From Oceanispirochaeta sp. (GTDB lineage Bacteria > Spirochaetota > Spirochaetia > DSM-2461), in the NCBI GenBank assembly GCA_963663385.2, contig CAXXXD010000003.1, positions 704,001 to 768,000 on the forward strand: a stretch of DNA of 64,000 bases. The letters run 5' to 3'. Within the stretch, counting starts at the first letter, position 1; each line of letters starts with the position of its first letter. This document shows, one piece after another, positions 34,531-64,000 of the stretch. The translations under genes were made by a program, and so were the position numbers. The notes under the pieces are model-generated. The model did not search any database and was not told where the DNA came from. It saw only the letters and a list, made by a program, of their open reading frames with translations.

Positions 34531-34731
34531 GAATACGGAAAAGTGCTAAAGAATGGGTATAGCGTTGGATAAAACCAATTGTAGTTGAATATAGCCGGTT
34601 TTAATCGGATTTAATATTGAAATCAAAGAGATGAATGATTTTTCCAAATGAGTGCTTTCAGGGGAGCCTTGAAAATACCCAGTTTGAGTTTTTCTACAGT
34701 CTCGTTATACAACAAGAATCAAGGATCACAT

Positions 34732-42255: not shown

Positions 42256-43699
42256 ATTTGATTTTTGGATAACTTCCAGATTATCAGAAATTAAAGACTC
42301 AGAAAAATTTAAATCAGAGATTAATCAAATCATTAATGCCATAGAGGTTTTGGGAACTCGAACTTCTAATTTTGATAATATCGAGGATGTATCTCCTAAG
42401 AAAATATCAGAATCTATTATTTATCATGTAAAGGGTAAGACTGGAACAGAACAAGAAGTAGCAATCCTTGGACTAATCAGCTTTATTTTTATGGTTACCG
42501 GGAAATCAGATAATAACTGTAAATGTCAGTTTCCAGTATATTTGCACAAGCAATTAAATAAGGATTCTATTCCAAAGATAAACTCGAATTCCACAATCGA
42601 AAATATTCCTATTCCTAGAACTATAAATGATTCGAGAGTCGCAAAAATTGTTGCCTCATTAGATAAATCACCTTTAGAACAATATGATTTTTTGTCTTCA
42701 TATATTCATTTTCTACTGGAAGAAAAATCATACATAGATTCTTTGTGGTCATTAGGTAGAACATATTTCCAATTAAAAGAAATTGGCTACCAAGAAGCAT
42801 TTTTATTACCACTTGTTGTTTATAGAGTCAGGGGTTCTGTAAGTGCATCTGGAGGTCATGAACCTGAAGAAATATTACGGGATCGAATGATAGAATGGGG
42901 ATTAGTAAGAGAAACAGATTTTAATACTAATGATGTGATTGTTGGAGAAGTAGATAAAAAATCTAAAACAAGGGCTTATGATTTTGTCTTACCCTATAAG
43001 ATTGATAGTTGGAGCCAAAAAATATTTATTCAAAGTCAGTTTTATGCAGGTGATAGTGGAAGTGTAAGTCATAAAAATGTTGATCAAATAAGTACTTCAA
43101 GATCTCATGTCAAATCAAAAATTTCAGAACCTATCTTTTTGGAATATGTTGATGGTGCCGGATATTATAGCTCCTTAAATGGAGATTTAAAGAAAATTCT
43201 TGCTATGGATGATACAGAAGATTTTTTCCAAGTAAAGACATCAGTTGTAAAATTAAGATTCTACCTTCAAGAGATTGGTTTTATAACTCCCATGGAGATT
43301 TTTCATGGTATTCTACTTGGTAATAATCATGAAGAAAAATGTAAAAAATTCCTAGAATCGCAGGGTTATAGTGAATCTGAAATTGAAAGAAGCATTAGCA
43401 ATGCTATTTCTAGACATCTTATATCATATGATAATTCAATTCTATCAATTGCATCTGATAATATTAGGATTGCTAAAAAGTATTTCTTATTAGATGTTAT
43501 AGTAAATCATTCTAATGAAAAAAGTAAAAGAGATAAAGGATGTTTTTTTATACCAGGTAAAGGTAATCAGATGGGAATTTCTTTTACGGATCTAGGAAAG
43601 GCAATTCAGAACTATTCCTCAGATATATGGAAAGATCCCTCTGCTTTACTTGAAGATATTCAATTCCTAATAGATAAAGGGTTTGTGAGCTCTACATAG
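42209..43699 (+). CDS. Putative type II restriction endonuclease
   Basis: Overlaps m5C MTase in same cassette; GHEPE...RAYDFVL...IFIQSQFY resembles a variant PD-(D/E)xK core. Confidence 0.7.
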   Translation: MKLELKTLTLTEKLNEFDFWITSRLSEIKDSEKFKSEINQIINAIEVLGTRTSNFDNIEDVSPKKISESIIYHVKGKTGTEQEVAILGLISFIFMVTGKSDNNCKCQFPVYLHKQLNKDSIPKINSNSTIENIPIPRTINDSRVAKIVASLDKSPLEQYDFLSSYIHFLLEEKSYIDSLWSLGRTYFQLKEIGYQEAFLLPLVVYRVRGSVSASGGHEPEEILRDRMIEWGLVRETDFNTNDVIVGEVDKKSKTRAYDFVLPYKIDSWSQKIFIQSQFYAGDSGSVSHKNVDQISTSRSHVKSKISEPIFLEYVDGAGYYSSLNGDLKKILAMDDTEDFFQVKTSVVKLRFYLQEIGFITPMEIFHGILLGNNHEEKCKKFLESQGYSESEIERSISNAISRHLISYDNSILSIASDNIRIAKKYFLLDVIVNHSNEKSKRDKGCFFIPGKGNQMGISFTDLGKAIQNYSSDIWKDPSALLEDIQFLIDKGFVSST

Positions 43700-48764: not shown

Positions 48765-51152
48765 ACTTTAAAAGAAGAATTAGACGAGTATATCCCACTT
48801 TATGACAGATTCAAGAAATATTTCGGTTATATGGACAAGGGATTTAAAGGTAAAAAGTATGAAATTTATGCCTATAATGGCGGGCTTTTTGCACCTGATG
48901 AGATTCTAGATAATATTTGTATCGATGATGAAATTCTCCATGAACATACTGTTAAGCTCAGTACTTATGATTTTGATACAGAAGTTGATGTAAATATTCT
49001 CGGGCATATTTTTGAACACTCATTAGGAGAAATCGAAAATGTACAAGCTCAAATCTTAGGCGAGAAAGTTGATAATCAAAAGACCAAACGTAAAAAAGAT
49101 GGCATCTTCTATACACCAAAATATATTACTAAATACATAGTTGAAAACACATTGGGCAAGTTTTGTGAGCAAAAGCGAAAAGAGCTTGACATTATTGACG
49201 AGGAATATGCTAAGGGTCGTAAGAATCGGAAGAAATCAACCATAATAGACTTAAATGATAAACTAAACATATATCGTGAATGGTTGTTGTCATTATCAAT
49301 ACTCGACCCAGCCTGTGGGTCTGGTGCATTTCTAAATCAGACTGTAGAATTCTTAATTGAAGAACATAAGAAAATTGACGAACTCCGTGCTCGAATGTAT
49401 GAAGATAGTTTGGTTTTTTCCGATATAACAACTGAAATCCTTGAAAAAAATATTTACGGTGTCGATTTAAATGAAGAATCAGTAGAAATTGCTAAACTGT
49501 CTCTTTGGTTACGTACAGCCGAAAAAGGGCGGAAACTAAATTCGCTCAGCAAAAATATTAAATGCGGAAATTCATTGATTGTGGATCCTAAAGTTGCAGG
49601 TGAAAAAGCATTTATCTGGGAAAACGAATTCCCTGAAATATTTGCGAATGGTGGGTTTGATGTGATTATTGGGAATCCGCCATATGTTCACCTTGAAAAA
49701 ATAAAAGAGACATCTGTTGCATTGAAAGATGCAAAATACGAAACTTACCATAGCCAGGGTGATATTTATTGTGTATTTGTAGAAAAAGGAATTGATATAT
49801 TAAAACAGAATGGGTTGATTTCTTATATTATGCCAAACAAGTGGTTGCAGGCAGGGTATGGAAGACCTCTCAGAGAGTATTTTCTTAAATACAAAATGTT
49901 AGAATTAATTGATTTCGGTGATATTCAAATATTTGAAGGAGCAACCACCTATCCTTGTATTTTTATTTCTCAAAAAGCAGAACCTCAAGAAGAAATTTCT
50001 ATTTCAGTATTAAAAGAATCAAATTCAATTGACTTTAAATTTAATGTAACCGAAACAGCTGAAATATTTGATGCAAAAACGTTTAGTGGTGATACTTGGG
50101 TAATAACCTCAAAAAAGGAAAAAGCGTTTTTAGAAACACTACAAAAAAAATATAATAAACTATCTGATTTTATAGATGGACAGGCTTTTTATGGGTTAAA
50201 AACAGGCTTGACTGAAGCTTTTTTAATTAATGAAGAAACAAAGCATAATATCATAAATAAAGATCAAAAAGCAAGTGAAAGAATTGAGCCATTTCTGCAA
50301 GGACGGGATATCATCAGATACAATACTGTAACACCATCAAGTCATTTAATTTTATTCGAAAAAGGTTTTACTAATGAACATATTAAGGATTCATCACAAG
50401 CTACAAGCTGGTTAAATTCAAAATATCCATCAATTGCAAGCTGGTTAGCTCCATTTGAAGAAAAAGGTAAGAAACGTACAGACAAAGGAGATTACTGGTG
50501 GGAACTACGGGCTTGCGATTATTATTCAGAATTTGCTAAGCCCAAAATAATGTATCAAAAATTTCAAGTAAAACCTTGCTTTATTTATGATGAGCAAGGA
50601 TTGTATTGTAATGATTCCATGTGGATTATACCAACAGAAAATAAAGCCCTTTTAGGTGTATTGAACTCAAAAATGGGGTGGTGGCTAATAACAAAATACT
50701 GTACACAAATACAAAATGGCTGCCAGTTAATTTGGAAATACTTCGGACAAATCCCTATACCTAATATTGATTCATCTGAATTAACTGAATTGGTGGAAAC
50801 AATGTTGGATAGAACTAGTGTTCATCAGGCTAGAACAAGATCGTTTCTTAAATATTTGTCTTCAAAGTTTAGTATAGAAAATTTTACTAAAAAACTTGAA
50901 AACTGGTCAGAATTAGATTTCTCAAACTTCTTAAAAGAACTGAATATAGGCATTAAAAAATCAGGTAGTAACAAACTCTCCAAGTCTGATGAAATGGAAT
51001 GGATGGAACTATTTGAAACAAAAAAAACTGAAGTTCAGGCATTAAAAACATTAATTGTAAATACAGATAATGAAATAAACAAATTGGTTTATGAATTGTA
51101 TGGTTTGAATGAAGAGGAGATAAAAATTGTTGAAGGTTCACATTCTTCATGA
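48765..51152 (+). pseudogene. 5'-truncated type IIG (Eco57I/TaqI-C-like) restriction-modification gene
   Basis: GIFYTP, DPACGSGAF, IIGNPPY, C-terminal TRD; first 18 codons of the track ORF come from the IS66 end; N-terminal nuclease region absent. Confidence 0.85.
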
Positions 51153-51209
51153 CGGTTTATGGTAAAGAAGTCACCTAATTCATACATATGTACCGATGTG
51201 GGCCTTATT

Positions 51210-51306
51210 TAGTATCAAAGCCTTGCAACTGTCATGGCAAACTGTCACAGAAAATGCTTGGCATTTTCTGCGCCAATTCACCATGCAGCTGAAGGCGATG
51301 TTGAGA
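51210..51306 (+). other. attC site (97-bp family) with R'' AAC mutated to ATC
   Basis: Near-identical to 36064-36160 but begins TAGTATC. Confidence 0.85.
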
Positions 51307-51332
51307 CTTCGGAAAAATTATTAAGAAAAGGA

Positions 51333-51361
51333 TTGTTGATAGTATCATATGATACTATTAT
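51333..51361 (+). promoter_or_regulatory. Fic promoter with 20-bp perfect palindromic operator
   Basis: TTGTTG-17-TATTAT; ATAGTATCATATGATACTAT at 51339-51358; ATG 6 nt after the -10. Confidence 0.6.
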
Positions 51362-51367
51362 TAGTAT

Positions 51368-52333
51368 ATGAAACCACCGTATGATATAACTAAAACGATA
51401 TTGGATTTATATGGGCAAATAACAGAAGCATTAGGAATATGCCAGAGTTTAATGCTTGTAAAACCAGAAGCTCGTTTACGCCGGCAAAATCGTATTAAAA
51501 CAATACAATCATCTCTAGCGATCGAAGGTAATACATTAAATATTGAGAACGTAACAGCATTACTTGATAATCAAAGAATTATTGGACCTGAAAAAGATAT
51601 TATTGAAGTACAAAATGCCATAAAGGCATATGAGAGCCTGATCACATTAAAGCCTCACAATAAAAAAGATTTCCTTTTAGCGCATAAAATACTAATGAAT
51701 GATTTAGTGAAAACACCTGGAGAATATAGAAAATCCCAGGTTGGAATAATGAAGGGAAAAGAAGTAGCACATATTGCTCCCACATCAGATATGGTTCCTG
51801 GTCTTATGAATGATTTGTTCAAATACTTGAAAGAAGATTCCGACTTAGAAATTATTAAAAGTTGCGTCTTTCATTATGAGGTGGAGTTCATCCATCCATT
51901 TGAAGATGGTAATGGAAGAATGGGAAGATATTGGCAAACACGAATACTAATGAATGTAAACCCAATCTTTGAGTTTGTACCCATTGAGAAACTTATAAAA
52001 GATAATCAAAAAGAATATTACCATGCCTTAGCACTATCAGAGAATACAGGCAAATCAACCGTATTTATCGAGTTTATGTTGAATGTCATAAATGAAGCAT
52101 TAAGAGATACAATTAATAAATCAAAGCCAACAAGTCCTGATTTTCATAAACGTTCAGAGATAGCTCTCTCTCAGCTGGATGGTTGGTTTGATAGAAAAGA
52201 GTACATGCAAGTCTGTAAAGGAATCTCAAGTGCTACAGCGAGCAGAGATTTAAAGCAATTACTTGATGAAAACAGAATTGAATCTTCCGGAAAGGGGAGA
52301 ATGACAAAATATAGAAATAAAAGGGATGGATAA
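51368..52333 (+). CDS. Fic protein (class II, N-terminal inhibitory motif) with C-terminal HTH
   Basis: SSLAIEGN; HPFEDGNGRMGR; ISSATASRDLKQL. Confidence 0.92.
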   Translation: MKPPYDITKTILDLYGQITEALGICQSLMLVKPEARLRRQNRIKTIQSSLAIEGNTLNIENVTALLDNQRIIGPEKDIIEVQNAIKAYESLITLKPHNKKDFLLAHKILMNDLVKTPGEYRKSQVGIMKGKEVAHIAPTSDMVPGLMNDLFKYLKEDSDLEIIKSCVFHYEVEFIHPFEDGNGRMGRYWQTRILMNVNPIFEFVPIEKLIKDNQKEYYHALALSENTGKSTVFIEFMLNVINEALRDTINKSKPTSPDFHKRSEIALSQLDGWFDRKEYMQVCKGISSATASRDLKQLLDENRIESSGKGRMTKYRNKRDG

Positions 52334-52347
52334 CAAAAACTTGCAGC

Positions 52348-53031
52348 GTGTGCCACGAGAAGGCACCTTAATCTAAAAGATGGAGGTATTTTCATAACTG
52401 TAATATTGATGAGGGAAGGACCCTCGGGATCGGTTTTCAGGAACAGGTTTCAAACCACCGCAAGCTGCATTGGTAAAGAGCCTTTGTGGTGAACGTTGTC
52501 GGAAAAAGCAGGAATTAGAACCTGTCAGGTGAGTCTTTGGAAGGTGAACAAAAGTGAACCGTCGATGAGGTCTTTGACACAATTGATCATGAGTTATTGC
52601 TTAAAGCAGTGCGGTTTCATAATCCTCCTGCCTGGGTAGTTCTCTATATCGCTAGATGGTTAAAGGCCTCTGCAGAAGATTCGAATGGAGTTGTGATTAA
52701 GCGAGAGCAGGGGACACCACAGGGCGGAGTTATCAGCCCATTGTTGGCGAATCTGTTTATACACTATGCCTTTGATGAATGGATGACGAGGACTTATCCA
52801 CATGTTGAGTTTGCTCGATATGCGGATGACGTTGTAATTCATTGTCGGAGAAGAAGTGAAGCAGAGTCATTGCTCTCGGGAGTTAAAAATCGTTTAAGTG
52901 ACTGCAAATTATCGGTGCATCCTGAGAAGACAAAAATTGTGTTTTGTAAAGACGACAATCGCAAAGGTGATTACGAATATACGGAATTTGACTTCCAGCT
53001 TTACGGTCTGCTGCTGAAAACGGTGTTCTAA
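52348..53031 (+). pseudogene. Internally deleted group II intron (class D-like) inserted in a truncated attC
   Basis: GTGTGCC 5' end right after GGATAAC-aaaaa-CTTGCAGC; intron-like RNA joined to RT fragment FDTIDHELLL...WVVLYIARWL...GTPQGGVISPLLAN...RYADD. Confidence 0.75.
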
Positions 53032-53053
53032 AGACAAAGGTAAAATACATTGA

Positions 53054-53656
53054 ATGAAACATAATGATTTCCTTTCAAAAACATTAAGGCAATACTGTCA
53101 CATCTCTGATAATGAAATCGATCTAATCAGGCCTAAAATTATAAAAAGGAATATCAATAGAAATGATCATTTTCTAAATCAGGGTGATAATATAAATCGT
53201 ATTTGTTTGATAAGGGAAGGTTTGTTCCGGGTATATTGTAATGATTTGTCAGGAGATGAAAAGACTTTGGCCTTTAGAAGTCAAGGTCAGTTTCTTGCCG
53301 GTTATTCCCCATTTATAGAAAACAAAGAAATTTGGTATTCGATAGAAGCTCTTGAGGATAGTGTAATCCTCGCAATGAGGTTTGAAGACTATCTGGACTT
53401 GGAGAGAAATTCGAATAGCTGGAATGAATTAATCAAAAACTACATGACTAGATTGTTTATTGAGAAGGAAGAAAGGGAACGTTCTTTTCTTCTTGATGAT
53501 GCCACAACCCGATATCTGGAATTTGTAAGGAAAAATCCGGATTTCGAGGAAAGAATTCCGCAGTTTATCATCGCATCATATCTTGGAATAACACCGGTTT
53601 CATTAAGTAGGATCAGGTCAAAGCTAAAAAAAAATAAATCAGATCAATTATCCTAG
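53054..53656 (+). CDS. Crp/Fnr-family transcriptional regulator
   Basis: cNMP-binding-like N-terminus; IASYLGITPVSLSRIR HTH. Confidence 0.9.
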   Translation: MKHNDFLSKTLRQYCHISDNEIDLIRPKIIKRNINRNDHFLNQGDNINRICLIREGLFRVYCNDLSGDEKTLAFRSQGQFLAGYSPFIENKEIWYSIEALEDSVILAMRFEDYLDLERNSNSWNELIKNYMTRLFIEKEERERSFLLDDATTRYLEFVRKNPDFEERIPQFIIASYLGITPVSLSRIRSKLKKNKSDQLS

Positions 53657-53718
53657 GATAATTACAGAAGTTTATTTCGATTGTATTGTTTTTTTTAAAT
53701 CTATATTGGGAGAACAAT

Positions 53719-54714
53719 ATGTCAAAAGCTTTTGTAACAGGAGCGGCAGGCTTCCTGGGAAACAATGTTATCAGGGAATTGCTTGATCAAGGTTGGGATG
53801 TTACGGCATTTCACTTGCCTTCAGACAATTTGAAATACTTATCTGGTTTGAATATTAAGTTTGCAGAAGGTGACATTCTTGATTATCAGTCTTTACTTGA
53901 TTCAATCCCTCAGGATGAGAATGTAATTGTCTTTCATATTGCCGGAGACACAAGCATGTGGGACAGACATAATGAGCGACAATACATGATCAACGTAAAA
54001 GGAACGGCTAATGTCGCCAAGGCGGCTCTGGATAGAGGCGTGAAAAAATTTGTTTTTACGTCTTCTATATCTGCCTATGGATATCATTCAGAAAGGATCG
54101 ATGAAGAAACACCATCGAATGCCCTGACATGTAAAATGAATTACAACAAGACCAAATATCTGGCAGAGCTGGAAGTCCATAAGGTTATTGAAAAAGGTTT
54201 AAATGCTGTCATTCTCAATCCCTGTAATATGATGGGGCCCTTTGATATAAAAGGATGGTCTACGCTTATTAAGAGTGTACTTAATAACGATGTTCCCGCT
54301 GTTTCCCTTGGTGTTGGAACTTTCGCTCATGTCCGCGATGTAGCAAAGGCTCATATTAAAGCTGCAGAAGTCGGGAAAAAAGGGGAAAACTATTTAATAG
54401 GCGGCGTTGAAATAGTATTCAGAGACATTTACCGGGAAATTAATGAAATACTGGGTAAAGATATGAATCTGAGAACTGTTTCCAGTCCAGTTTTTCGAAT
54501 GGCTATGTATTTAATAAGATTGAAAGCCTTTTTGAAAAGGGAAGAACCTATTTTGACATATCCGAGATATAAAAGACTGACTGGCAGAATTATCTGCAAT
54601 GATGAAAAAGCCAGGAAGGAACTGTCATTTCAGACTTCCAGTATGAAAGAGATGTTAAGTGATTCCTATGCATGGCTACAGCAGGAAGGTCTTACCATAA
54701 AGGAAAATTCATGA
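53719..54714 (+). CDS. NAD-dependent epimerase/dehydratase (extended SDR)
   Basis: VTGAAGFLG, YNKTK; GGAG RBS before ATG 53719. Confidence 0.9.
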   Translation: MSKAFVTGAAGFLGNNVIRELLDQGWDVTAFHLPSDNLKYLSGLNIKFAEGDILDYQSLLDSIPQDENVIVFHIAGDTSMWDRHNERQYMINVKGTANVAKAALDRGVKKFVFTSSISAYGYHSERIDEETPSNALTCKMNYNKTKYLAELEVHKVIEKGLNAVILNPCNMMGPFDIKGWSTLIKSVLNNDVPAVSLGVGTFAHVRDVAKAHIKAAEVGKKGENYLIGGVEIVFRDIYREINEILGKDMNLRTVSSPVFRMAMYLIRLKAFLKREEPILTYPRYKRLTGRIICNDEKARKELSFQTSSMKEMLSDSYAWLQQEGLTIKENS

Positions 54715-55406
54715 AATCCAGGACAGCCTTTGTAGAAGTAAGTGATGAACCCCTTCATCAGGAAGTATATAGAAATGATCATGTTCGTGTTTATCGTGCT
54801 ATATTGAAGCCTGGTTATTCTACCGATTTTCATAGACATTCAAAAAATACTTTATATGTTACCATTCGGGGAGGTAACATAATGACAAGGACAATGAAAG
54901 GAACCCATGCTTGTCCTACTGTTCTATCAAAGAGGGTTTCTTTGATTAAGCGTATTTGTTTATTGTTTCAAAAAATTTTTTCCAATTCCCTGAATCTCTT
55001 CAACGGTTTTGTATTTTACATGGCAAGTGAAAGGAATCCTGTAATTCACAAGGCAACAGCCTCAAGTAAAAACGGTTTCAATATGGATTTAATGGGAATT
55101 GAAGTCCTGTATTCAAATCAAATGAAATACAGAGTTAAGAATATCTATGGTAAGATTGAGATTGAATCAGATGAAATAATGGCCTGTCGAATCACTTTGA
55201 ATTCTCATCAAAAATTATCAGGTGAAAATTTACATAGAGACGGACTCATTATTGTTTTATCAGGAAAATTAGGTATAAAAGTAAATCAGGAATATTCTTA
55301 TCTGAAAGCAGGAGAACTTTATTCTACTGGCGATGAATCTATTCAAGAAACAGAGAATCAGGGACTTAAACAGATGGAAATTCTATATATTGTTTTCAAA
55401 AAATAG
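54711..55406 (+). CDS. Cupin-like hypothetical protein
   Basis: NDHVRVY...PGYSTDFHRH; ATGA overlap with upstream gene. Confidence 0.6.
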   Translation: MKSRTAFVEVSDEPLHQEVYRNDHVRVYRAILKPGYSTDFHRHSKNTLYVTIRGGNIMTRTMKGTHACPTVLSKRVSLIKRICLLFQKIFSNSLNLFNGFVFYMASERNPVIHKATASSKNGFNMDLMGIEVLYSNQMKYRVKNIYGKIEIESDEIMACRITLNSHQKLSGENLHRDGLIIVLSGKLGIKVNQEYSYLKAGELYSTGDESIQETENQGLKQMEILYIVFKK

Positions 55407-55417
55407 ACTAATAAAAA

Positions 55418-55451
55418 TGAAAATACCCAGTTTGAGTTTTTCTACAGTCTC
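55418..55451 (+). mobile_element. Orphan IS1182 right end
   Basis: TGAAAATACCCAGTTTGAGTTTTTCTACAGTCTC identical to 34670-34703, again followed by GTT. Confidence 0.9.
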
Positions 55452-55469
55452 GTTATGAATAATTCAGGA

Positions 55470-55498
55470 TTGATGGCTAAGTCTAAATGTGGTACAAT
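55470..55498 (+). promoter_or_regulatory. TA cassette promoter
   Basis: TTGATG-17-TACAAT, then GGAGG RBS. Confidence 0.65.
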
Positions 55499-55520
55499 AT
55501 ATGCACTTGGAGGTTGATAA

Positions 55521-55808
55521 ATGAATTTAAAAGACGATATAAAGCCAATTTCATATATAAAGACAAATGCTGCTGATATGCTTAAACGCGTGAATGAAAC
55601 ACACAATCCAATAGTTATTACTCAAAACGGAGAAGCAAAAGCAGTATTGTTAGACACTGAATCATATCAGGATATGCGTAATAGTTTAGGAATTTTAAAG
55701 ATTCTTGCAGAAGGTGAGAAAGCTGCAGAAGATGGACAAGTATATACTCAAGATGAAGTTTTCGACTACATGGAAGAAAAATTAAGAAAATTAAAAGAAA
55801 AAGAATAG
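55521..55808 (+). CDS. Phd/YefM antitoxin
   Basis: IKPISYIK...PIVITQNGEAKAVL. Confidence 0.9.
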   Translation: MNLKDDIKPISYIKTNAADMLKRVNETHNPIVITQNGEAKAVLLDTESYQDMRNSLGILKILAEGEKAAEDGQVYTQDEVFDYMEEKLRKLKEKE

Positions 55809-55809
55809 A

Positions 55810-56133
55810 ATGGATAAATTCAAAGTTATATGGACGAAACCTGCGTTAGATGATTTAGACGAGATAATTGGTTATATCGCAAAGGATTCAGTAGATATCG
55901 CACTAAAGCAATATGAAAGAATTAAGGATACATCTCTGGAGATTGGAAAATTCCCAAAACAAGGAAGAATAATACCAGAATTGCAGAATGAGAATATAAT
56001 AAAATTTAGAGAAATAGTTTTAACGCCATGGCGAATGATGTATCGAATTGAAGAGACGAGAATTCTGATATTAGCAATATTAGATGGCAGAAGAAATATT
56101 GAAGAAATAATGATGAAAAGACAGCTTAGGTAA
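55810..56133 (+). CDS. RelE/ParE toxin
   Basis: VIWTKPALDDLDEI...FPKQGR...RMMYRI...ILAILDGRR. Confidence 0.9.
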   Translation: MDKFKVIWTKPALDDLDEIIGYIAKDSVDIALKQYERIKDTSLEIGKFPKQGRIIPELQNENIIKFREIVLTPWRMMYRIEETRILILAILDGRRNIEEIMMKRQLR

Positions 56134-56167
56134 TTGACTTTATAAAATTTTAAATAAGCTTCAAATA

Positions 56168-56243
56168 ACAGATTTTACCAGGAACATTTGAATAAACATT
56201 ATGCCATGCGGCTTAAATCTCCCAACTTTTAAAAGCAATGACG
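56168..56243 (+). pseudogene. Degenerate, internally deleted IS1182 transposase fragment at array end
   Basis: Matches ~33049-33088 joined to ~34133-34173 through shared ATGCCAT. Confidence 0.75.
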
Positions 56244-56308
56244 ACCAGCCCCTCCCTGTCTGAGGGATATTCTCTTTATTCCGGGAAAGCTGTCGGGAAA
56301 AAAGAGAA

Positions 56309-56337
56309 TTGACACGCCAACCTGCAGATTATATGCT
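56309..56337 (+). promoter_or_regulatory. Sigma70 promoter of ABC operon
   Basis: TTGACA-17-TATGCT. Confidence 0.65.
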
Positions 56338-56385
56338 TGGATATTGTTTGTAAATTAGTCATTCCAAACATAAAGAGGAGACATT

Positions 56386-57462
56386 ATGAGAAAATTGTCA
56401 GGTTTTATTTTTCTGCTGCTGACAGCACTGCTTTTCCTGTCATGCGGAAAAGAAAAGGAGACCGATGAAAAACCTGCTGTTCAGACCGTATATCTGGGGC
56501 AGGACTGGTCTTCCCCTCATTACCGGGAGGATATGGCGGGAACAGTTCTGAATCTCTACGGGGTTACCGACAAAGTTCGCCCCATACTTGATGTTTTTAC
56601 AGAAGATACAGGTATCAAGGTTGAGCATCTGACTCTTAAAAACGGGGAAATTCTACAGAGGCTTACCCACGAAGCCGATTCGGGAGTCGTCATCGCCGAT
56701 CTCTGGTTTACCGGAGGAGCTGACACATTTATCATAGCCGGGCAGAATGATCTGTTGCTCTCTTACGAATCTTCCAACGGAGATGTTCTGGATAAGGATA
56801 TGAAAGATTCCGATCATTACTGGTACGGAACATCCCTGACTCTGGTCAACTGGGTTGTCAACAAAGAGCTAATCGAAGAGAAAGGGTTGAAAATGCCTGA
56901 AGTCTGGGACGATCTTCTTCAACCGGGCCTGAAGGGGCAGGTTTCCATGTCCAATCCGGCTTCCTCCGGTACCGCATACAATGTAGTCAGTGCCGTGCTG
57001 CAGACAAGAGGGGAAGTGAGGGGCTGGGGCTACCTCAAGGAACTTATCGGACAGGTTCCGTTCTTTACGGCCCGTGGCAGTGACCCCGCCAATATGGTTG
57101 TCAATGGCGAGGCTATTGTCGGTATCAATGCCAGTAATGGTGACCGGGAGCTGGAAATCAACAATTCCCATATCAAACTGGTTTATCCTTCGGACGGAAC
57201 CGGATGGTGGCCTCAGCCTGCGGCTATTATCAAAGGGACAAAACACGAAGAGGAAGCTAAAGTCTTTATCGACTGGATCATTTCAAAAAGGGGGATGGAA
57301 ACTGTAGCCTCATCCCGTTATGCTGCGGTAGCCCGCAAGGATGTTAAAATCCCCGAGGGAATAGAGGACATTCAGGATATTGCTCTGTTTCCCACTGATT
57401 TTCAGGCCAATGCGCTGGAGCGTGACGCTATTCTCGCACAATGGGCTGAATATGTAGAATAA
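56386..57462 (+). CDS. ABC substrate-binding lipoprotein (AfuA/FbpA-like family)
   Basis: Lipobox FLSC; ADLWFTGG, SNPASSGT. Confidence 0.88.
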   Translation: MRKLSGFIFLLLTALLFLSCGKEKETDEKPAVQTVYLGQDWSSPHYREDMAGTVLNLYGVTDKVRPILDVFTEDTGIKVEHLTLKNGEILQRLTHEADSGVVIADLWFTGGADTFIIAGQNDLLLSYESSNGDVLDKDMKDSDHYWYGTSLTLVNWVVNKELIEEKGLKMPEVWDDLLQPGLKGQVSMSNPASSGTAYNVVSAVLQTRGEVRGWGYLKELIGQVPFFTARGSDPANMVVNGEAIVGINASNGDRELEINNSHIKLVYPSDGTGWWPQPAAIIKGTKHEEEAKVFIDWIISKRGMETVASSRYAAVARKDVKIPEGIEDIQDIALFPTDFQANALERDAILAQWAEYVE

Positions 57463-57464
57463 TC

Positions 57465-59111
57465 GTGAAAGCCGATGCCATGAAGGGGGTATATTACCTC
57501 CTCGCTTTTGCTCTCCTTTGCTTTACCGCTTTTCCGGTCCTCTCCGTTTTCCTGTACGGGTTATTCCCCCTTTCGGCAGACGGGGAGCTGGGGAGCATGG
57601 TGCTCAGATCTCTACCCTATCTGAAAAACAGCTTTTTTATTGCTTTAATTGTCACACCGGCAGCAGTCCTCATCGGGCTGGCTGCCACACTGGCCGTTCA
57701 CAGGTTCGCATCTCCGTTTAACAGATTTTTCAGACCTGTAATTCTTCTCTCACTGATCCATCCCCCTTTTGTGGGAAGTATAGCCTTTATCATGCTCTTC
57801 GGTAAAAGAGGGCTTGTAACCCACGATCTGCTTCATCTCGACGTCAGTCCCTACGGATGGCAGGGAATAGCCCTGATGCAGTTTCTGGGAATGGGATCCA
57901 TGGCTTATCTTATCATCTCCAGCTCTGTAGGGAAATCAGATCCCCTTATTGAGGATGCGGCGCGGAACCTTGGAATCTCTGAATGGAAAATCTTCCGGGA
58001 TATCACCCTGAGATCCATGTCTCCCGAACTTTCATCCGCAGCCATCCTGGTTTTTCTGGCATCGATGGCCGATTTCGGTACGCCTTTAATTATCGGCGGT
58101 CCTTTTCAGACTCTGGCATCCGATCTCTACATACAGATTACCGGACTATACGATATGCGATCGGCCTCTGTTTCGGGAATCCTGCTTCTTGTCCCCTGCA
58201 TAGTCCTTTTTGTATATCAGAGGCGGCTCAACAGGAAAAAGGCTTATTACGCCATGGCTCTTTCCGGCGGATCTATTCACTTCCGGCATTTCAGCCGCTT
58301 TGTAAAGATCCCTGCTGTCGGTATAACCCTGCTCTATACTCTTTTTATCCTTCTCAAATACGGCTTTATTTTTATCGGTGCCTTTACCGAGCACTGGGGA
58401 TACGATTATTCTCTGACTCTGCGCCATCTGATAAAAGTTCTTCAGAAAGACCTGTCCCCCTTTGTCAACAGTGTGCTTCTGGCATTTTTTACAGCATTGT
58501 TCTCTTCGCTGGCGGGTGTTTTTCTCAGTTATGTCGTAAAAACAAAAAAATGGGCTTTTCTGGCTGTTTCCGATGTTCTGGCGACTCTTCCCGCCGCTGT
58601 TCCGGGAATACTTCTGGGGATCGGGTATCTGGTTACGTTTAAGTACCCTGTGCTGGGGATCGGTCGTTTTATTCTGAAGGACCTGTCACCCCTTATTCTT
58701 CTGGGTACGGGAATCATCATTTACATCATCTGTATTTTCCGGTATATGAATGTGGGGCTGAGAACCGGGTATGCCCTGCTGGAGCATATCAATCCCAATA
58801 TCGAGGAAGCAGCCAGAAATCTGGGACAAAGTGAAAACAGAATTTTCTCAGGTATCATGCTGCCCCTTCTGTCTCCGGCTTTCCGGACATCGTTTTTCAA
58901 GGTTTTTTCCACAACCATGACCACTCTCGGGGCAATTATATTCCTGCTGCTCCCTTCAAATAAAGTAGCTGTTCAGTCTATATTTCAGATTATCACGAGC
59001 AGCGAAAGAGGGGTAGCGGCTTCAATGGCTTTACTTCTTTCTCTGACTACCGGGCTTATGCTCGGTATATTCCGGTTATTAAATGCATTGATAGCAAAGA
59101 AGAGAATATGA
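57465..59111 (+). CDS. ABC permease (FbpB-like, two EAA loops)
   Basis: EDAARNLG and EEAARNLG; DFGTP. Confidence 0.9.
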   Translation: MKADAMKGVYYLLAFALLCFTAFPVLSVFLYGLFPLSADGELGSMVLRSLPYLKNSFFIALIVTPAAVLIGLAATLAVHRFASPFNRFFRPVILLSLIHPPFVGSIAFIMLFGKRGLVTHDLLHLDVSPYGWQGIALMQFLGMGSMAYLIISSSVGKSDPLIEDAARNLGISEWKIFRDITLRSMSPELSSAAILVFLASMADFGTPLIIGGPFQTLASDLYIQITGLYDMRSASVSGILLLVPCIVLFVYQRRLNRKKAYYAMALSGGSIHFRHFSRFVKIPAVGITLLYTLFILLKYGFIFIGAFTEHWGYDYSLTLRHLIKVLQKDLSPFVNSVLLAFFTALFSSLAGVFLSYVVKTKKWAFLAVSDVLATLPAAVPGILLGIGYLVTFKYPVLGIGRFILKDLSPLILLGTGIIIYIICIFRYMNVGLRTGYALLEHINPNIEEAARNLGQSENRIFSGIMLPLLSPAFRTSFFKVFSTTMTTLGAIIFLLLPSNKVAVQSIFQIITSSERGVAASMALLLSLTTGLMLGIFRLLNALIAKKRI

Positions 59112-60175
59112 AAAAAGTAAAACTATCCATCAGTCAGCTTCGGCAGAATTACGGAGGAGAACCGGTTCTGAAAGGGATCTCCCTGGATATTTATGAAGGA
59201 GAAACCCTGGTTGTTCTCGGCCCTTCGGGGTGCGGTAAAACATCTCTGCTTAAATCGATTGCCGGGCTGGTCCCTGTCGATGGGGGAACACTTCTTCTCG
59301 ACGGCGCAAATGTTGAAGCTCTTCCTCCCCAGGAAAGAAAAACTGCTATGATTTTCCAGAATTATGCTCTTTTCCCCCATATGACTGTTGAGGAAAATCT
59401 GTCATATGGATTGACTGTTAAAGGCCGGAAACCGGAGAACCGCAGTGAAAATATCCGCAATATTCTCAGACTTCTCAAACTCGAAGGGTTTGAGAACAGA
59501 CCGGTTACGGAGCTTAGCGGCGGACAGCAGCAGCGGGTCGCTATCGGTCGTGCCATGATCATAGGGCCTTCGGTTCTCCTCTTTGATGAACCCCTGAGCA
59601 ACCTGGATGAAAACCTGCGAAAACTGATGAGGAGAGAGATAAGAACCATTCTGCGTGATGCCAATGTCACAAGCCTGTATGTAACCCACGACCAGAACGA
59701 AGCCCTTGCAATGGCAGACAGGATTGTTGTGATGAAAGAGGGGGTGATCGAACAGATTGCAACTCCCGGGGAGCTGCACTTCAAGCCGGCAAATACCTAT
59801 GTCGCCCGCTTTCTCGGTTACGGGAATATTTTTACCTGTGAACAGCGGGACGGCCGGTTTTTTCTTTTCGGTCAGGAAGTCCCTGTTTCACCCGGAAGAG
59901 GATCGGATCCGGTTTCCGTACTTATCAGGCCTGAGGATCTGGAGCTTCTGGCAGCGGGTGAACCACCGCAGGGCGCTCTAAGCGGAACCGTAACGGATGT
60001 GGAAATTCAGAGCAGTGTTATCCGGTATAAAGTGAAAACCGCAGAAGCGGAGTTTGATGTCGCCCTTCTCAACTGCCGTGACGGTGCCATGCTTTCTCCA
60101 GGCCATTCCGTTTTTCTCAAGGTGAAAAGTGAAAATTTTCATATTCTCCGTTCTGTAGAGAGGGTAGATCCGTGA
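59108..60175 (+). CDS. ABC ATP-binding protein (FbpC/PotA-like, TOBE)
   Basis: GPSGCGKT, LSGGQQQR, FDEPLSNLD. Confidence 0.93.
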   Translation: MKKVKLSISQLRQNYGGEPVLKGISLDIYEGETLVVLGPSGCGKTSLLKSIAGLVPVDGGTLLLDGANVEALPPQERKTAMIFQNYALFPHMTVEENLSYGLTVKGRKPENRSENIRNILRLLKLEGFENRPVTELSGGQQQRVAIGRAMIIGPSVLLFDEPLSNLDENLRKLMRREIRTILRDANVTSLYVTHDQNEALAMADRIVVMKEGVIEQIATPGELHFKPANTYVARFLGYGNIFTCEQRDGRFFLFGQEVPVSPGRGSDPVSVLIRPEDLELLAAGEPPQGALSGTVTDVEIQSSVIRYKVKTAEAEFDVALLNCRDGAMLSPGHSVFLKVKSENFHILRSVERVDP

Positions 60176-60804
60176 TAATTGACCTGCATTTCCATACGAA
60201 AGCTTATTCCTCCTGCAGCCGCATCATCCTGGAAGAGGGGGTGGCGCGGGCTGCTTCCATTGGCCTTGATGCCATCTGTCTTACTGAACACGATGTGTTT
60301 CCCCGGTACCGGGAGATTCCAGAGTTAGAAAAGCGATTTGGAATCAGGATCTTTTCCGGTGTGGAAATTTATACGGTTCAGGGAGACATACTCTGCTTCG
60401 GTCTCGACAGGCTTCCTTCGGGAAGAGTTGATGCCGCTGCGCTTGTAAACCGGGTGGCGGAACAGGGGGGGGCCACCATAGCCGCACATCCTTTCAGGAA
60501 TAACGACAGAGGCGTGGGGGAGCTGATCACCGCGCTTCCGGGGCTTTCCGCCGTTGAAGCCTGGAATGGAAATACCTCTTATGAGAATAATCTGAAAGCA
60601 TTGAAAATGGCTGAATCACAGAGTATTCCCGTTACGGGCTCCAGTGATTCCCATCGTCTGGAGAGGATAGGCCTTTACGCAACGGAATTCCGGGATAGGA
60701 TAGGAACAAAGAGAGAACTGATTTCAGCTCTCAGAAGCGGTTCATTCAAACCGGTTATATACAATGCGGAGACCGGGGTATTCGACACGATATCCATTAG
60801 CTGA
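60172..60804 (+). CDS. PHP-family phosphoesterase
   Basis: DLHFHT, TEH, AAHP, GSSDSH. Confidence 0.9.
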   Translation: MIIDLHFHTKAYSSCSRIILEEGVARAASIGLDAICLTEHDVFPRYREIPELEKRFGIRIFSGVEIYTVQGDILCFGLDRLPSGRVDAAALVNRVAEQGGATIAAHPFRNNDRGVGELITALPGLSAVEAWNGNTSYENNLKALKMAESQSIPVTGSSDSHRLERIGLYATEFRDRIGTKRELISALRSGSFKPVIYNAETGVFDTISIS

Positions 60805-61295
60805 TCATTTCAGTGTCAACTTCATTAATCAACTCACCGGAATATATTCAATTATAAAGGGATATAAATGGTTTTTAATGAATACAGAATGGAAAACAGT
60901 GCGGTGAAGAATACCCGCACGGAACTATAGGTAAATTGGGCCGGTACGGGATTTAAGCTCGTTCAGCTTTTCCCGCACCACATCAGGTATATTTCTCTGT
61001 TTTCCGGCTGACCTGAGAAGAGACTCTATCAGAGGTCAGTATCCGAATGACCGCCGTAAAGCAGGCGGCCTCCAGGATAGCTGTTTTCAAATATACTTCT
61101 GTCTTCCTATGGTTTCTAGCTCTTAAAAACAGATCTGACCGGGACCACTGCAGTGGCTCTGCGGTATTTGCATTTAAAAATGAATGTGCAATAATTAAAA
61201 AAGCGGACCGGTTGCGTGGAATAGACAGGCTTTCCGCAGCAAAAGGGGTATTCCCATCAGATGCGTTTGGTGAAAAGGAAGAGGAGGTGCATTCA

Positions 61296-62300
61296 ATGTC
61301 TCGGAATGAACGACACAATGATTTTCTGAAAAATGCCTGGAACCAGTGCACCGCAAATTGTGCCGAATATTTTTCATCCACCTACAACCTTCATTATTCC
61401 ATGAAAGACAGGATAGACAATATTGATCTGTACGGATCCACCTTTACCTCCAGCCCCCACAGATACATCGGCAGAGACAGTCTGACAGCCGAAGGCGGAA
61501 TCAATCTTTCTCAGAATATCAGTCCTCTCCAGGACAATCTCGGCGATATTTATCTGAAATACAGCCATTACAATCTGATTGCCTATCTGAAATCAGTCAG
61601 ACAGGAGATTCTGGCGATGGTCAATGGAGATGAGGCATCCGTTCTCGCTCTCCCGGAAAGTTTTAAAGACTCAATAGACAGTCTGCTCTCCATCTGGAAA
61701 TTCCGGATCAACAGTGAGTTTGATTATTCCACAATAACCTATACGGATCACCTTGAAGATCCGCTGAACGAGGACGACAGGGTTACCATTCAGCCGGTAT
61801 ACAGCGTCATGATCTACCATGAGCTGGGGCACCTTTATTATAACCTTTACAACGGAAGAATCATAAAGGACATCCCCGAATATCTGCTGGAGGACTCCGG
61901 GATAAATGAGAAGAGAAGGGTCTTTGAACAAATTGTGGAAGACAACCATATGGGGTCGCTGTGTCCCGATAAATATGAAGAGTATTTTGCTGATAATTTT
62001 TCTTATATGAATTGTTCCCGCCTGCTGGGCGGATTATCCCGTATAGAACCATTCTACCTTTCTCTATACGGCATAATCATGAATCTGGTTATACTGGAGA
62101 TCAAGAATTACTACCTGGGAATCGATGAGTCCGACAGTCATCCAACTTCCCGTGAAAGAATCGAGTTTATATACGGGTATATCAAGGTTGTAAACACTGG
62201 GCGATTCCCGGATTATTTCCGAAACTCCGGCAGAATCTGCCGGGCGGGAATGGATATTGTTTCTCTGGTTAGAGATCATTTAAGGAGTAATCATGCATAA
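61296..62300 (+). CDS. HEXXH zinc metallopeptidase (Lit/U49- or M48-like)
   Basis: IYHELGH, EEYFAD, SHPTSRERI; strong GAGGAGG RBS before ATG 61296. Confidence 0.7.
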   Translation: MSRNERHNDFLKNAWNQCTANCAEYFSSTYNLHYSMKDRIDNIDLYGSTFTSSPHRYIGRDSLTAEGGINLSQNISPLQDNLGDIYLKYSHYNLIAYLKSVRQEILAMVNGDEASVLALPESFKDSIDSLLSIWKFRINSEFDYSTITYTDHLEDPLNEDDRVTIQPVYSVMIYHELGHLYYNLYNGRIIKDIPEYLLEDSGINEKRRVFEQIVEDNHMGSLCPDKYEEYFADNFSYMNCSRLLGGLSRIEPFYLSLYGIIMNLVILEIKNYYLGIDESDSHPTSRERIEFIYGYIKVVNTGRFPDYFRNSGRICRAGMDIVSLVRDHLRSNHA

Positions 62301-62643
62301 TTTGAAGATTGTAGGGCCATCCACGGAACTGGAAATACTGTCGGGGCTTCTGCCGGGTTCCTTTGAGTACAGGGAACAGACGGTCAGGCCCGGACTCTCG
62401 GAGAAAAAAGATTTCGGTGATGTAGGGGCGGTCATCCTGGGTTCCTTTGCAAGCGGAACACTTGGTCAGATCCTGGTGATCATAGCCCGGTACATCAAAG
62501 ATAAAAAAGAAAAATATATTGATATTGAGACCGAAGACGGCATGAAATTCCGGGTGCCCTACAATATCAGCGATGAAGATCTGGATGAATTGTTGTCAAA
62601 AATCGACAGGATCAGATCAAATCTGCATCTGACACTGAGGTGA
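62293..62643 (+). CDS. Small EACC1-like protein with central hydrophobic hairpin
   Basis: PG..FGDVGAVILGSFASGTLGQILVIIARYI then IDIETEDG.K.RV...DLDELL; overlaps peptidase stop; AAGGAG RBS. Confidence 0.55.
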   Translation: MHNLKIVGPSTELEILSGLLPGSFEYREQTVRPGLSEKKDFGDVGAVILGSFASGTLGQILVIIARYIKDKKEKYIDIETEDGMKFRVPYNISDEDLDELLSKIDRIRSNLHLTLR

Positions 62644-62729
62644 TGAAATTGATTACGACAAATGTATTTAGAAAGCACCTGTGAAAATTTAAATAAGTCG
62701 GGTAGGATGTTAAAAGGAAAATATAAACA

Positions 62730-63560
62730 GTGATCAACCATAAGAAAATACTGGGTTCCTATAGAAATGACTGGTACAACACTGACTTTCTGGAATTATT
62801 AAATAAAAGGTATGATTTTAAATCAAAAAACAAGATTCTCGATGTGGGATGCGGGGAGTATCACTGGATACTCAATTTTATCAATTTCTTTAATCAGAAT
62901 GCGCAAATTACAGGTATAGATATCAATGACATTGATGCTGAAATCTTATCTGGCTTACAGGCCGCTGCAAAAGATACCATCAGAGAACTGAACTTTATAA
63001 AATCATCATCTGATAAACTTCCCTTCGATGATGAGTCATTTGATCTGGTTACATGTCAGACACTTATGATACATCTGGAGAATCCATTGGAAACATTAGC
63101 TGAAATGAAGAGGGTAGTAAAACAGGGCGGCCTGATTCTAATATCAGAACCTAATAATCTAGCTCAGGCGGTTTTTATTAATAGCATAAACATTAAAGAA
63201 TCAATCGACGAGAAGATACACTTTATCAGAGAAAAAATGAAAAGTGATGAATTAAAAATAGAAAGCTGTCAGGGAAATAACTCGATAGGAGAATTGATTC
63301 CTGTATATCTGAAACAGATCGGTTTGGAAAATATACAGTGTTATTTAAATGACAAAGTTACTCGACTGACCAGTCCATACAGTTCTGAATCAGAAAAGCG
63401 GAAAATCAGAATGTTGAAATCTCTGATTACCGATTATCCATTTAAGTTTTCTGAATCAGAAAAAGTTAAAATACAGAGAATTGTTGATGATATAAGCAGC
63501 GGAGATTACTGGTCCTATTCACCGACAATGTTATTTATATCTTCCGGAATTAAGGGATAA
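62730..63560 (+). CDS. Class I SAM-dependent methyltransferase
   Basis: ILDVGCG, TGIDIN, LPFDDESFDLV, LAEMKRVVKQGG. Confidence 0.88.
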   Translation: MINHKKILGSYRNDWYNTDFLELLNKRYDFKSKNKILDVGCGEYHWILNFINFFNQNAQITGIDINDIDAEILSGLQAAAKDTIRELNFIKSSSDKLPFDDESFDLVTCQTLMIHLENPLETLAEMKRVVKQGGLILISEPNNLAQAVFINSINIKESIDEKIHFIREKMKSDELKIESCQGNNSIGELIPVYLKQIGLENIQCYLNDKVTRLTSPYSSESEKRKIRMLKSLITDYPFKFSESEKVKIQRIVDDISSGDYWSYSPTMLFISSGIKG

Positions 63561-63889
63561 TTCTTCGATGGCTATATAAACGGTTACTGCTAAGTGTGAG
63601 AAGCCTGTTGACTGCGGATCTACAGTAAAAGAGAATCTTGAAATTATAAAATGGAATGGATGCAAAATAAGAATCCTCCCTATTGGATATCAGCAAAATT
63701 CAAGTAGAATACGAAGAGGAGAAGAAAGAGTAAATACGATAGAAGAATATCTTAAATTTAATGAATCAAAATATAAAGAGGCGTGTTAGAGCTATAATAT
63801 CTTACTGAAAATACTATTGGTAAATAATATTGGATGAGAAATTATATGAAAAATATAATAATTAATAAGATGAAAAAGCAGGTGGAAAA

Positions 63890-64000
63890 ATGGAATTGAG
63901 AATTGAACGAGTTTATGAAGAATGCCGTAAAGAAGTCCTTGATATATTTAACTACTATATAAAAAATACGACAGCAGCATATAGAGAAGATATTGTTGAT
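63890..64000 (+). CDS. Partial GNAT (phosphinothricin acetyltransferase-like) N-terminus
   Basis: MELRIERVYEECRKEVLDIFNYYIKNTTAAY; runs off right edge. Confidence 0.55.
   Translation, partial: MELRIERVYEECRKEVLDIFNYYIKNTTAAYREDIVD

Follow-up and report, generated by a model that had tools for sequence, protein, structure and literature searches.

Can a pore-forming effector of the EACC1 type be licensed by a protease that is not a caspase? This question is raised by a pair of genes located near the end of a stretch of 64,000 nucleotides from Oceanispirochaeta sp. (assembly GCA_963663385.2, contig CAXXXD010000003.1, positions 704,001 to 768,000 of the forward strand; this whole stretch is hereafter called the window, and all positions refer to it). 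The pair, of about 1.35 kb, is composed of a gene encoding a HEXXH zinc peptidase of 334 amino acids (aa), cytosolic and belonging to a rare Lit/U49- and M48-like family (P0001; 61296..62300, plus strand), and of a gene encoding a small membrane protein of 116 aa with an EACC1-like layout (P0002; 62293..62643, plus strand). Both open reading frames (ORFs) are present at the coordinates given by a first-pass annotation of the window, which had proposed a protease-activated death effector pair. Protease-licensed death effectors represent an emerging common logic of bacterial immunity. By analogy with the published EACC1-caspase pair, we tentatively interpret the two genes as a zincin-gated EACC1-like pore, that is a protease-effector cell-death module, and we give this interpretation a little less than an even chance. 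If it is true, an EACC1 effector can be licensed by another protease class, which would break the stated caspase-only rule. The Lit-type exclusion proteases would gain a second mode of action, by way of a dedicated membrane effector rather than by cleavage of EF-Tu, and the pair would constitute a minimal two-gene system with no large sensor, handy for dissecting pore licensing. The novelty is conditional on the EACC1 link of the small protein. If the interpretation is wrong, the locus would still reveal a new family of Lit/M48-like peptidases, coupled here to an orphan membrane protein.

The plus-strand ORF containing the peptidase extends from 61047 to 62300 and, read from its first ATG, encodes 417 aa; the start of the 334-aa form is at 61296. 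The real first gene is the 334-aa reading, because a Shine-Dalgarno sequence GGAGG (61283..61287, plus strand) is found 8 nt 5' of the ATG at 61296, because the homologues have 328-341 aa and are aligned from residue 1 of the 334-aa form, because nothing in these homologues corresponds to the 83 additional residues of the 417-aa form and because, in a second strain, the substitution 61049 G>A destroys the ATG at 61047. The public annotation apparently uses the 417-aa reading from 61047 (a 417-aa member with an NCBI source); the first 83 residues of this reading (61047-61295) are probably not translated. The small gene starts inside the last codons of the peptidase gene with an 8-nt overlap (ATGCATAA), and its own Shine-Dalgarno sequence AAGGAG (62282..62287, plus strand) is located 5 nt 5' of its ATG, within the end of the peptidase gene. 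Both ribosome sites are strong and the two genes are translationally coupled.

The second strain is represented by run X6 with one contig of depth 3. In this contig, where single differences may be errors and the counts are small, the peptidase gene shows 7 synonymous and 6 non-synonymous changes (dN/dS ~0.23) and the small gene shows 3 synonymous and 2 non-synonymous changes (dN/dS ~0.20). From these values both genes look to be under purifying selection. Comparison of the contigs indicates that the match with the second strain ends at position 62665, 22 nt after the stop of the small gene. Because the second strain diverges at this point, the pair is considered as a kept unit, of which the methyltransferase region located beyond is not a part.

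Three motifs, HELGH, E..AD and SHP...RI, had been noticed in the peptidase and were confirmed at the same places. The motif HELGH (residues 175-179; codons 61818..61832, plus strand) is the predicted zinc-binding and catalytic motif. The motif EEYFAD (residues 228-233; 61977..61994, plus strand) contains the probable third zinc ligand, a Glu, and corresponds to the E..AD motif common to Lit and U49. The motif SHPTSRERI (residues 281-289; 62136..62162, plus strand) corresponds to the [ST]HP...R motif, as in the sequence THPAAYERI of Lit. An alignment of seven family proteins (A1), from which a fragment of 64 aa was left out, reveals that the residues His175, Glu176, Gly178, His179, Tyr182, Glu228, Glu229, Asp233, Pro283 and Arg288 are invariant in 7/7 sequences, and His282 is invariant in a further alignment (A2). 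Since ten residues are invariant in all seven members, the motifs represent more than chance. The HEXXH motif and the downstream Glu that characterize gluzincins are conserved in the whole family (His175, Glu176, His179, Glu228 and Glu229 in 7/7 sequences), and P0001 displays the U49 motif order (HEXXH, E..EAD and [ST]HP...R in a cytosolic protein of ~300 aa). The same order is found in Lit of Escherichia coli (HEISH..EEREAD..THPAAYERI) and in a Pfam-positive U49 protein of the genome G294 (HEIGH..EIEADNFA..THP); in 401 genomes from the phylum of the window, no other Pfam-positive U49 protein was found. No membrane or signal segment is present in the peptidase (best Kyte-Doolittle mean over 19 residues, 1.38), in agreement with the earlier reading as to the signal peptide.

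The family to which this peptidase belongs is represented in none of the profile libraries searched, and it is extremely rare. A HMMER pass over 1,835,955,588 representative proteins recovered 7 matches at E<=0.001, among which 5 at E<=1e-10 and 2 at E<=1e-30. These matches are the 98% identical copy of the second strain, the 64-aa fragment (82% identity) and five distant relatives (25-33% identity) that come from metagenome or run assemblies. The fragment (P0008), carried by a contig of 44,484 bp from another assembly, is 82% identical to residues 1-45 of the peptidase; it possibly represents a copy that has been truncated or has decayed in a related organism. A word-indexed protein search with the peptidase gave only the 98% identical copy (1 of 1252 candidates). 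With the libraries Pfam, NCBIfam, PADLOC and PHROGs, no significant family was detected for the peptidase nor for the small protein; the rows obtained for the two proteins were only at chance level and were set aside (ATLF, E 0.18; CarD_TRCF_RID, E 0.12; phrog_25332, E 0.034). None of the 7 family members gave a row at E<=10 with the Pfam U49 model (PF10463, cut-off 23.9 bits), and this model has no match in the source genome. The cut-off of the Pfam M48 model (PF01435) was reached by none of the 7 members, of which one touches the model with an E value of 0.29 and P0001 has no row.

Relationships with Lit/U49 and M48 were observed by profile, language-model and structural comparisons. Using hhalign, the family profile matched the U49 protein of G294 with a probability of 76% (E 2.2e-5) over 90 columns that include all three motifs, and matched the alignment of Lit with this U49 protein with 38% (E 0.00034) over 20 columns. 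In the language-model atlas, the top neighbour of the peptidase has a score of 0.96 and is a cluster carrying the U49 tag on 20% and the M48 tag on 14% of its members; the 30 language-model matches comprise 19 from U49-tagged sets (10 + 9), 10 without a name and one with the M48 tag. The AlphaFold2 model of the peptidase is all-helical (mean pLDDT 65, pTM 0.74), and the HEXXH and downstream Glu motifs are included in the predicted helices 159-185 and 224-243, respectively. A Foldseek search of the PDB with this model yielded no match at E<=0.001, and the best match of a sequence profile search of the PDB has an E value of 0.59 only. An exhaustive structural scan of 48,161 PDB chains gave ten best rows, nine of which are zinc peptidases by title (Z 5.2-6.6): PepO, neprilysin, Zmp1, ECE-1, BepA, ZMPSTE24, the putative Zn peptidase 3c37 and DPP III. 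Three of these chains, BepA (6sar_A; Z 6.0, rmsd 4.7, 142 aligned residues), ZMPSTE24 (6bh8_A; Z 5.7, rmsd 6.6, 136 aligned) and 3c37_B (Z 5.2, rmsd 5.6, 137 aligned), lie under the caution line of the method, which is Z 8; since the Z values are below this line, only the enrichment in zinc peptidases is counted. From sequence analysis we conclude that the peptidase is a probably catalytically intact, cytosolic gluzincin of a new and very small family, which appears related to Lit/U49 and to M48 and is a member of neither by the Pfam models. The proposal of a Lit/U49- or M48-type zincin thus stands for the kinship, with the motif order, the hhalign probability of 76%, the language-model score of 0.96 and the zinc-peptidase rows of the structural scan, and falls for membership.

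The second gene encodes a protein that can be divided into three parts. Residues 1-43 (62293..62421, plus strand) comprise a short strand and a helix (3-20; the helix itself is predicted at 10-19), then a linker with Pro and Gly (21-43) that ends with DFGD. This secondary structure has a low confidence, and by analogy with the N-terminal fragment of EACC1 the part may be inhibitory and may contain the cleavage region. The short N-terminal segment (1-20) and the Pro/Gly-containing linker had both been reported in the first-pass annotation and were found again. Residues 44-66 (62422..62490, plus strand) form a single hydrophobic helix with a patch of small residues (Gly45, Gly50, Ser51, Ala53, Ser54, Gly55 and Gly58), all seven Gly/Ser/Ala positions being in the first half of the helix; the Kyte-Doolittle maximum over 19 residues is 1.96, at 46-65. 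These 23 residues correspond to one membrane-spanning helix, and the "Gly-rich hydrophobic hairpin" that had been described for this region is abandoned. The hydrophobic stretch is followed by IDIETEDGMKFRV, with a Lys-rich stretch between the helix and the predicted hairpin YIDIE-TEDG-MKFRV. The predicted beta-hairpin itself, YIDIETEDGMKFRV, occupies residues 75-88 (62515..62556, plus strand; strands 75-79 and 85-89, low confidence) and is followed by a C-terminal helix (94-112).

This layout has to be compared with that of EACC1. The two-gene EACC1-caspase system was described as "System 4" by Kaur, Burroughs, Iyer and Aravind in 2020 (PMC7159879). According to this description, EACC1 is a protein of ~110 aa with a single central transmembrane (TM) helix bearing a small-residue/Gly patch and with brief alpha+beta extensions at the N- and C-termini; it is encoded by the 5' gene beside a caspase-superfamily peptidase, or a cyclase displacing it, and the authors state that the EACC1-caspase pair is not swapped among systems (PMC7159879). 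More recently, Evans et al. 2025 (bioRxiv 10.1101/2025.11.14.688446) reported that cleavage of a 114-aa EACC1 by its caspase-like partner occurs at Asp49, immediately ahead of the helix, that toxicity and liposome permeabilisation reside in the C-terminal piece of 7.1 kDa and that, in their model, the N-terminal piece pairs with two C-terminal strands. The small protein of the window, with its 116 aa, has the layout of EACC1: one central TM helix with a small-residue patch and alpha+beta flanks.

In the language-model atlas, where the line for common features is 170 and where 4 to 10 of every 100 shuffled proteins also score at least 0.9, the best score of the small protein is 0.91, with unnamed clusters of 115-127 aa. 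Among its 30 nearest clusters, 14 carry the EACC1 tag (PF19953) on a minority of their members; the listed PF19953 cluster has a score of 0.90 and 184 of 256 features in common, with the tag on 19% of its members. By eye, the alignment with one published EACC1 (Table S1 of Evans et al.) is collinear, with about one identity in five and no statistic attached. The elements found in the same order and with similar spacings are D-x-G at the helix start, LGS, L-x-Q, a basic stretch, an (E/D)-G hairpin turn and L-x-E-L-L. On these sequence comparisons we consider it somewhat probable that the small protein is homologous to EACC1. The label "EACC1-like" is retained for the architecture and for the 14 of 30 language-model neighbours; it does not extend to a Pfam EACC1 match at E<=10, to a caspase partner or to the gene order, which is reversed.

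The interaction of the two proteins was also predicted. The complex of the peptidase with the small protein has a score of 0.45 (runs 0.52, 0.01 and 0.45), versus 0.10 for the best of three controls. The mark used for such complexes is reached by 116 of 157 solved complexes and by 2 of 215 mismatched pairs; at values <=0.60 only 18 of the 157 solved complexes reach it, together with the two passing mismatches. Agreement between the runs amounts to at least 0% of contacts, and the pLDDT of the partner is at least 69. This prediction weakly supports the pairing.

By these elements a mechanism can be proposed. The peptidase would stay inactive in the absence of a signal of infection or stress, in the way that Lit is latent before the Gol peptide of T4 appears. 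Once activated, it would cleave the small protein in its linker, close to residues 35-46 and immediately ahead of the hydrophobic helix, and this cut would remove the inhibitory N-terminal piece. The freed C-terminal piece (helix, beta-hairpin and helix) would then oligomerise in the membrane and kill the cell, as published for the EACC1 cleaved by caspase. As a speculation by analogy, the helix start FGDVGAVI may offer small-residue/hydrophobic junctions that resemble the Gly-Ile site of Lit in EF-Tu. In evolutionary terms, an EACC1-type pore effector may have been captured by a Lit/M48-like zincin that replaced the caspase-like protease, with the gene order reversed and without a fused sensor; we regard this scenario as possible, if somewhat doubtful.

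The likeness to the EACC1-caspase pair concerns a protein of ~115 aa, a central helix with small residues, alpha+beta flanks, a gene directly beside the protease gene and, by analogy, a cleavage before the helix that would free a membrane-damaging C-terminal piece. The EACC1 partners named in the literature (PMC7159879; bioRxiv 10.1101/2025.11.14.688446) are caspase-like cysteine proteases or a displacing cyclase only. No description of a zincin-EACC1 pair was found in the literature on EACC1, U49 or Lit-like phage proteins, taken in part at the level of titles and abstracts, and the words metalloprotease, metallopeptidase and zincin are absent from the main text of Evans et al. (bioRxiv 10.1101/2025.11.14.688446). 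Within these limits, the earlier statement that a metallopeptidase-EACC1 pairing would be new holds. A comparable logic is known from the bacterial gasdermin-protease and Pepco-protease modules, where a latent pore-former is encoded beside its licensing protease; unlike the present pair, these modules contain unrelated effector families, and the proteases described for them are of serine or cysteine types.

The distribution of the pair is patchy and accessory, unlike that of housekeeping genes. With the family profile (A1), no relative was found in 10 other species of the genus (0/10), and the DNA of the window from 50000 to 64000 gave no match overlapping 61296-62643 in these 10 species. No relative was detected with A1 in 14 other genomes of the family, a single row corresponding to a stretch of 59 residues being set aside. 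In 400 other genomes of the phylum, there were 0 real matches with the small protein P0002 and 0 with A1. Three rows of the P0002 search (E 0.003-0.005) were dismissed as lying inside unrelated frames of 318-818 aa, and a row of 49 residues in the A1 search was dismissed as it contains a stop. In a word-indexed search of 5.8 billion clusters, with 34 word-sharing candidates, only the 98% identical copy of the small protein was recovered (1/34), also at E<=10. Concerning viruses and plasmids, the viral contigs gave nothing with alignment A2 or with the peptidase relatives P0005 and P0009, and tblastn of both proteins against plasmids and phages gave no match. A 22-residue match of P0002 in a viral contig was dismissed, being in no plus-strand ORF of at least 40 aa, and a match in a metagenome contig was dismissed as a NAD-kinase gene. 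The operon located upstream of the pair, encoding an ABC transporter and a PHP protein, is present in two congeners, where the genes after it are unrelated.

A distant relative of the peptidase is encoded by an archaeal contig assembled from a metagenome (L006, 4998-6666). It has 398 aa with the motifs HEIGHIFYN, EFISDCFA and THPPSNLRV. Directly before it lies an ORF of 156 aa encoding a helical protein, whose stop is 2 nt before the start of the relative; this ORF is a possible partner of the archaeal relative, different from the small protein of the window.

Several results weigh against the zincin-gated pore. Concerning the small protein, the Pfam EACC1 model (PF19953, cut-off 23.6 bits) gave no row at E<=10 for P0002, P0004 or either half, and no match at E<=10 was obtained with this model against the whole source genome; NCBIfam and PADLOC likewise contained nothing for it. 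The AlphaFold2 model of the small protein alone, from an alignment of 2 rows, has a pLDDT of 40, too low for use in fold searches. Unlike the EACC1 genes, the small gene is placed 3' and not 5', without a Pfam EACC1 match, and its neighbour is a HEXXH zincin and not a caspase-superfamily peptidase or a displacing cyclase; also unlike the published system, this protease is not a caspase-like cysteine protease and has no fused sensor domain. No caspase was matched among the neighbour proteins scanned. In the phylum (401 genomes) the EACC1 model gave 0 matches, a result of little weight as no control genome matched either. Concerning the peptidase, the family profile compared with Lit alone reached only 1% in hhalign (E 0.042) over 16 columns covering the HEXXH helix only, and all the structural Z values are below 8. 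Since Lit acts alone on EF-Tu, a Lit-like enzyme needs no partner effector, and a similar downstream partner was found in none of the three readable related peptidase genes (the archaeal relative L006, the U49 gene of G294 and lit of E. coli). Concerning the pair, one of the three complex runs scored 0.01, and the pair is known from one species only, in two strains with 98% identity.

The comparison with Lit leads to a first alternative. Lit (a cell-death peptidase from the e14 prophage of E. coli; Peptidase_U49) is sufficient by itself for exclusion: with the Gol peptide bound, it cleaves EF-Tu at the Gly59-Ile60 junction (PMC3014915). The peptidase of the window could in the same way be itself the death effector, cutting an essential host protein such as EF-Tu; the small protein would then be an accessory inhibitor or antitoxin, an anchor or a sensor, and not the substrate-effector. 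P0001 indeed has the motif set of Lit, its overall size and its HEXXH position: both are cytosolic, of ~300 aa, with HEXXH near residues 160-175, the same motif order and an accessory patchy gene. They differ by the absence of a Pfam U49 match here and by an insertion of ~30 residues between HEXXH and E..AD; moreover, unlike Lit, which stands alone with its substrate EF-Tu, the peptidase of the window has a coupled gene for a small membrane protein. The tight coupling and the weak complex signal would fit any binding partner. Yet none of 3 related peptidase genes examined has a partner, and a self-sufficient peptidase would leave the presence of the added gene to be explained otherwise. For the small protein, the language-model neighbours and the layout point to the effector family, and EACC1 itself was later shown by experiment to be the killing part and not a sensor (bioRxiv 10.1101/2025.11.14.688446). 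We hold a self-acting Lit-like peptidase to be rather unlikely.

A role outside conflict is judged less likely still. The M48 peptidases have a layout with HEXXH, a downstream Glu and a His-Pro motif, and the M48-type enzymes act in housekeeping proteolysis. The pair could consist of a cytosolic M48-like peptidase and a small membrane protein acting in protein quality control or in peptide maturation. In favour of this explanation, M48-type enzymes are among the best structural rows (BepA, Z 6.0; ZMPSTE24, Z 5.7), the guanine-cytosine (GC) content and GC3 of the pair resemble those of the neighbouring ABC-transporter operon and of the core genome and not those of low-GC islands, and a zincin with a small fast-evolving precursor is already published, the FxSxx-COOH system (PMC7159879), a peptide-processing pair whose zincin is thought to cut the small protein. 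The likeness to M48 (BepA, HtpX, Ste24/ZMPSTE24) comprises the motif layout, best structural rows with Z 5.2-6.0 and the presence of M48 among the language-model neighbours. It does not comprise a membrane segment or signal peptide, both absent from the peptidase, nor a housekeeping distribution, and only 1 of 7 members touches the Pfam M48 model (E 0.29). The likeness to the FxSxx-COOH pair is limited to a zincin gene beside a small protein gene; the precursor of that pair differs from the present small protein, which contains a membrane helix and does not end in the FxSxx motif. Also opposed to a housekeeping role are the absence of the pair from 10/10 congeners and from 400 other phylum genomes, the number of peptidase relatives, only 7 in 1.84 billion representatives, and the unrelated genes that follow the ABC-PHP operon in two congeners. 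The last explanation considered is that the small ORF is a lineage-specific orphan with no tie to EACC1, the likeness being convergent among small single-pass membrane proteins and the adjacency uninformative. This would agree with a protein that no profile library recognises, with the lack of any further relative among 34 candidates or 400 phylum genomes and with the language-model scores of at least 0.9 that 4 to 10 per 100 shuffled proteins also reach. It agrees poorly with the strong ribosome site, the 8-nt overlap and the 3 synonymous versus 2 non-synonymous changes of the small gene, with the 184 features in common with the EACC1-tagged cluster (above the line of 170), with the collinear by-eye comparison with a published EACC1 and with a complex score above those of all three controls. 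Both the housekeeping role and the orphan ORF seem to us improbable, to a similar degree, and the zincin-gated EACC1-like pore is kept as our tentative interpretation.

The genomic setting of the pair was analysed over the window. The GC content is 0.47-0.54 in the first 24 kb and 0.32-0.41 from 24 to 56 kb. The ABC-PHP operon has a GC content of 0.47-0.51 and the pair of 0.44-0.46 (GC3 0.52-0.55); the methyltransferase gene beyond 62.7 kb has 0.34. The composition of the pair is thus unremarkable, and low GC marks its flanks. A location of the pair within a high-GC foreign island was ruled out: the core of the window has a GC content of 0.47-0.54, and the flanks are low-GC insertions. The S-adenosylmethionine (SAM) methyltransferase region past 62665 is low-GC and unlinked to the pair in the second strain. 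At 5-12 kb from the pair are found a ParE/Phd pair, a Fic gene, a type IIG restriction-modification gene and several insertion sequence (IS) elements. Mobile elements and conflict genes are found together in the low-GC stretch, which contains a group II intron reverse transcriptase and a reverse-transcriptase fragment, three IS66, a DDE_Tnp_1_6 IS, an IS21-type pair, a Phd/ParE pair, a Fic protein, a C5 DNA methylase and an Eco57I-like type IIG enzyme. The neighbourhood is variable and defence-rich. Because the transporter operon separates the pair from the low-GC stretch, this defence context is only suggestive. No vWA-MoxR or FtsH system was found among the neighbours scanned, and no Rfam family was found in 55000-64000. 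A promoter-like site, TTTGCA-17-AATAAT with TG (61167..61195, plus strand), is present ~100 nt upstream of the peptidase start, in the gap of 491 nt after the PHP gene; it is a weak candidate by consensus match only, and 14 promoter-consensus sites were found versus 9.0 +/- 3.5 expected in shuffles.

Some other features of the low-GC stretch can be mentioned. The three IS66-family copies are located at 31305-32867 (plus strand), 43960-46202 (minus strand) and 46460-48702 (minus strand). Two of them are complete three-gene units (an ORF of 98 aa, a TnpB-like ORF and a transposase of 520 aa) arranged in tandem, ~2.5 kb apart, and the 520-aa transposases at 31305 and 43960 have identical Pfam scores. 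The Phd/ParE pair (55521-56133) is flanked by short repeats at 55419-55458 (40 nt) and 56156-56208 (53 nt). These repeats are found with 91-100% identity at several sites of the genome, usually ~1.6 kb apart, and the same repeats bracket the DDE_Tnp_1_6 transposase gene of the window (33035-34708). From these positions, the Phd/ParE pair seems to sit between end-fragments of a DDE_Tnp_1_6 IS. A full group II intron reverse transcriptase/maturase is encoded at 26967-28247 (minus strand); a separate reverse-transcriptase fragment of 144 aa is located at 52597-53031 (plus strand), and its DNA recurs with ~93% identity in other genomes of the genus. The C5 cytosine DNA methylase and an overlapping ORF of 496 aa without a Pfam match occupy 40882-43699 (plus strand), the 496-aa ORF being possibly the restriction enzyme of the methylase. 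Finally, the Eco57I-like type IIG restriction-modification enzyme (813 aa) is encoded at 48711-51152 (plus strand) and the Fic-domain gene lies at 51368-52333.

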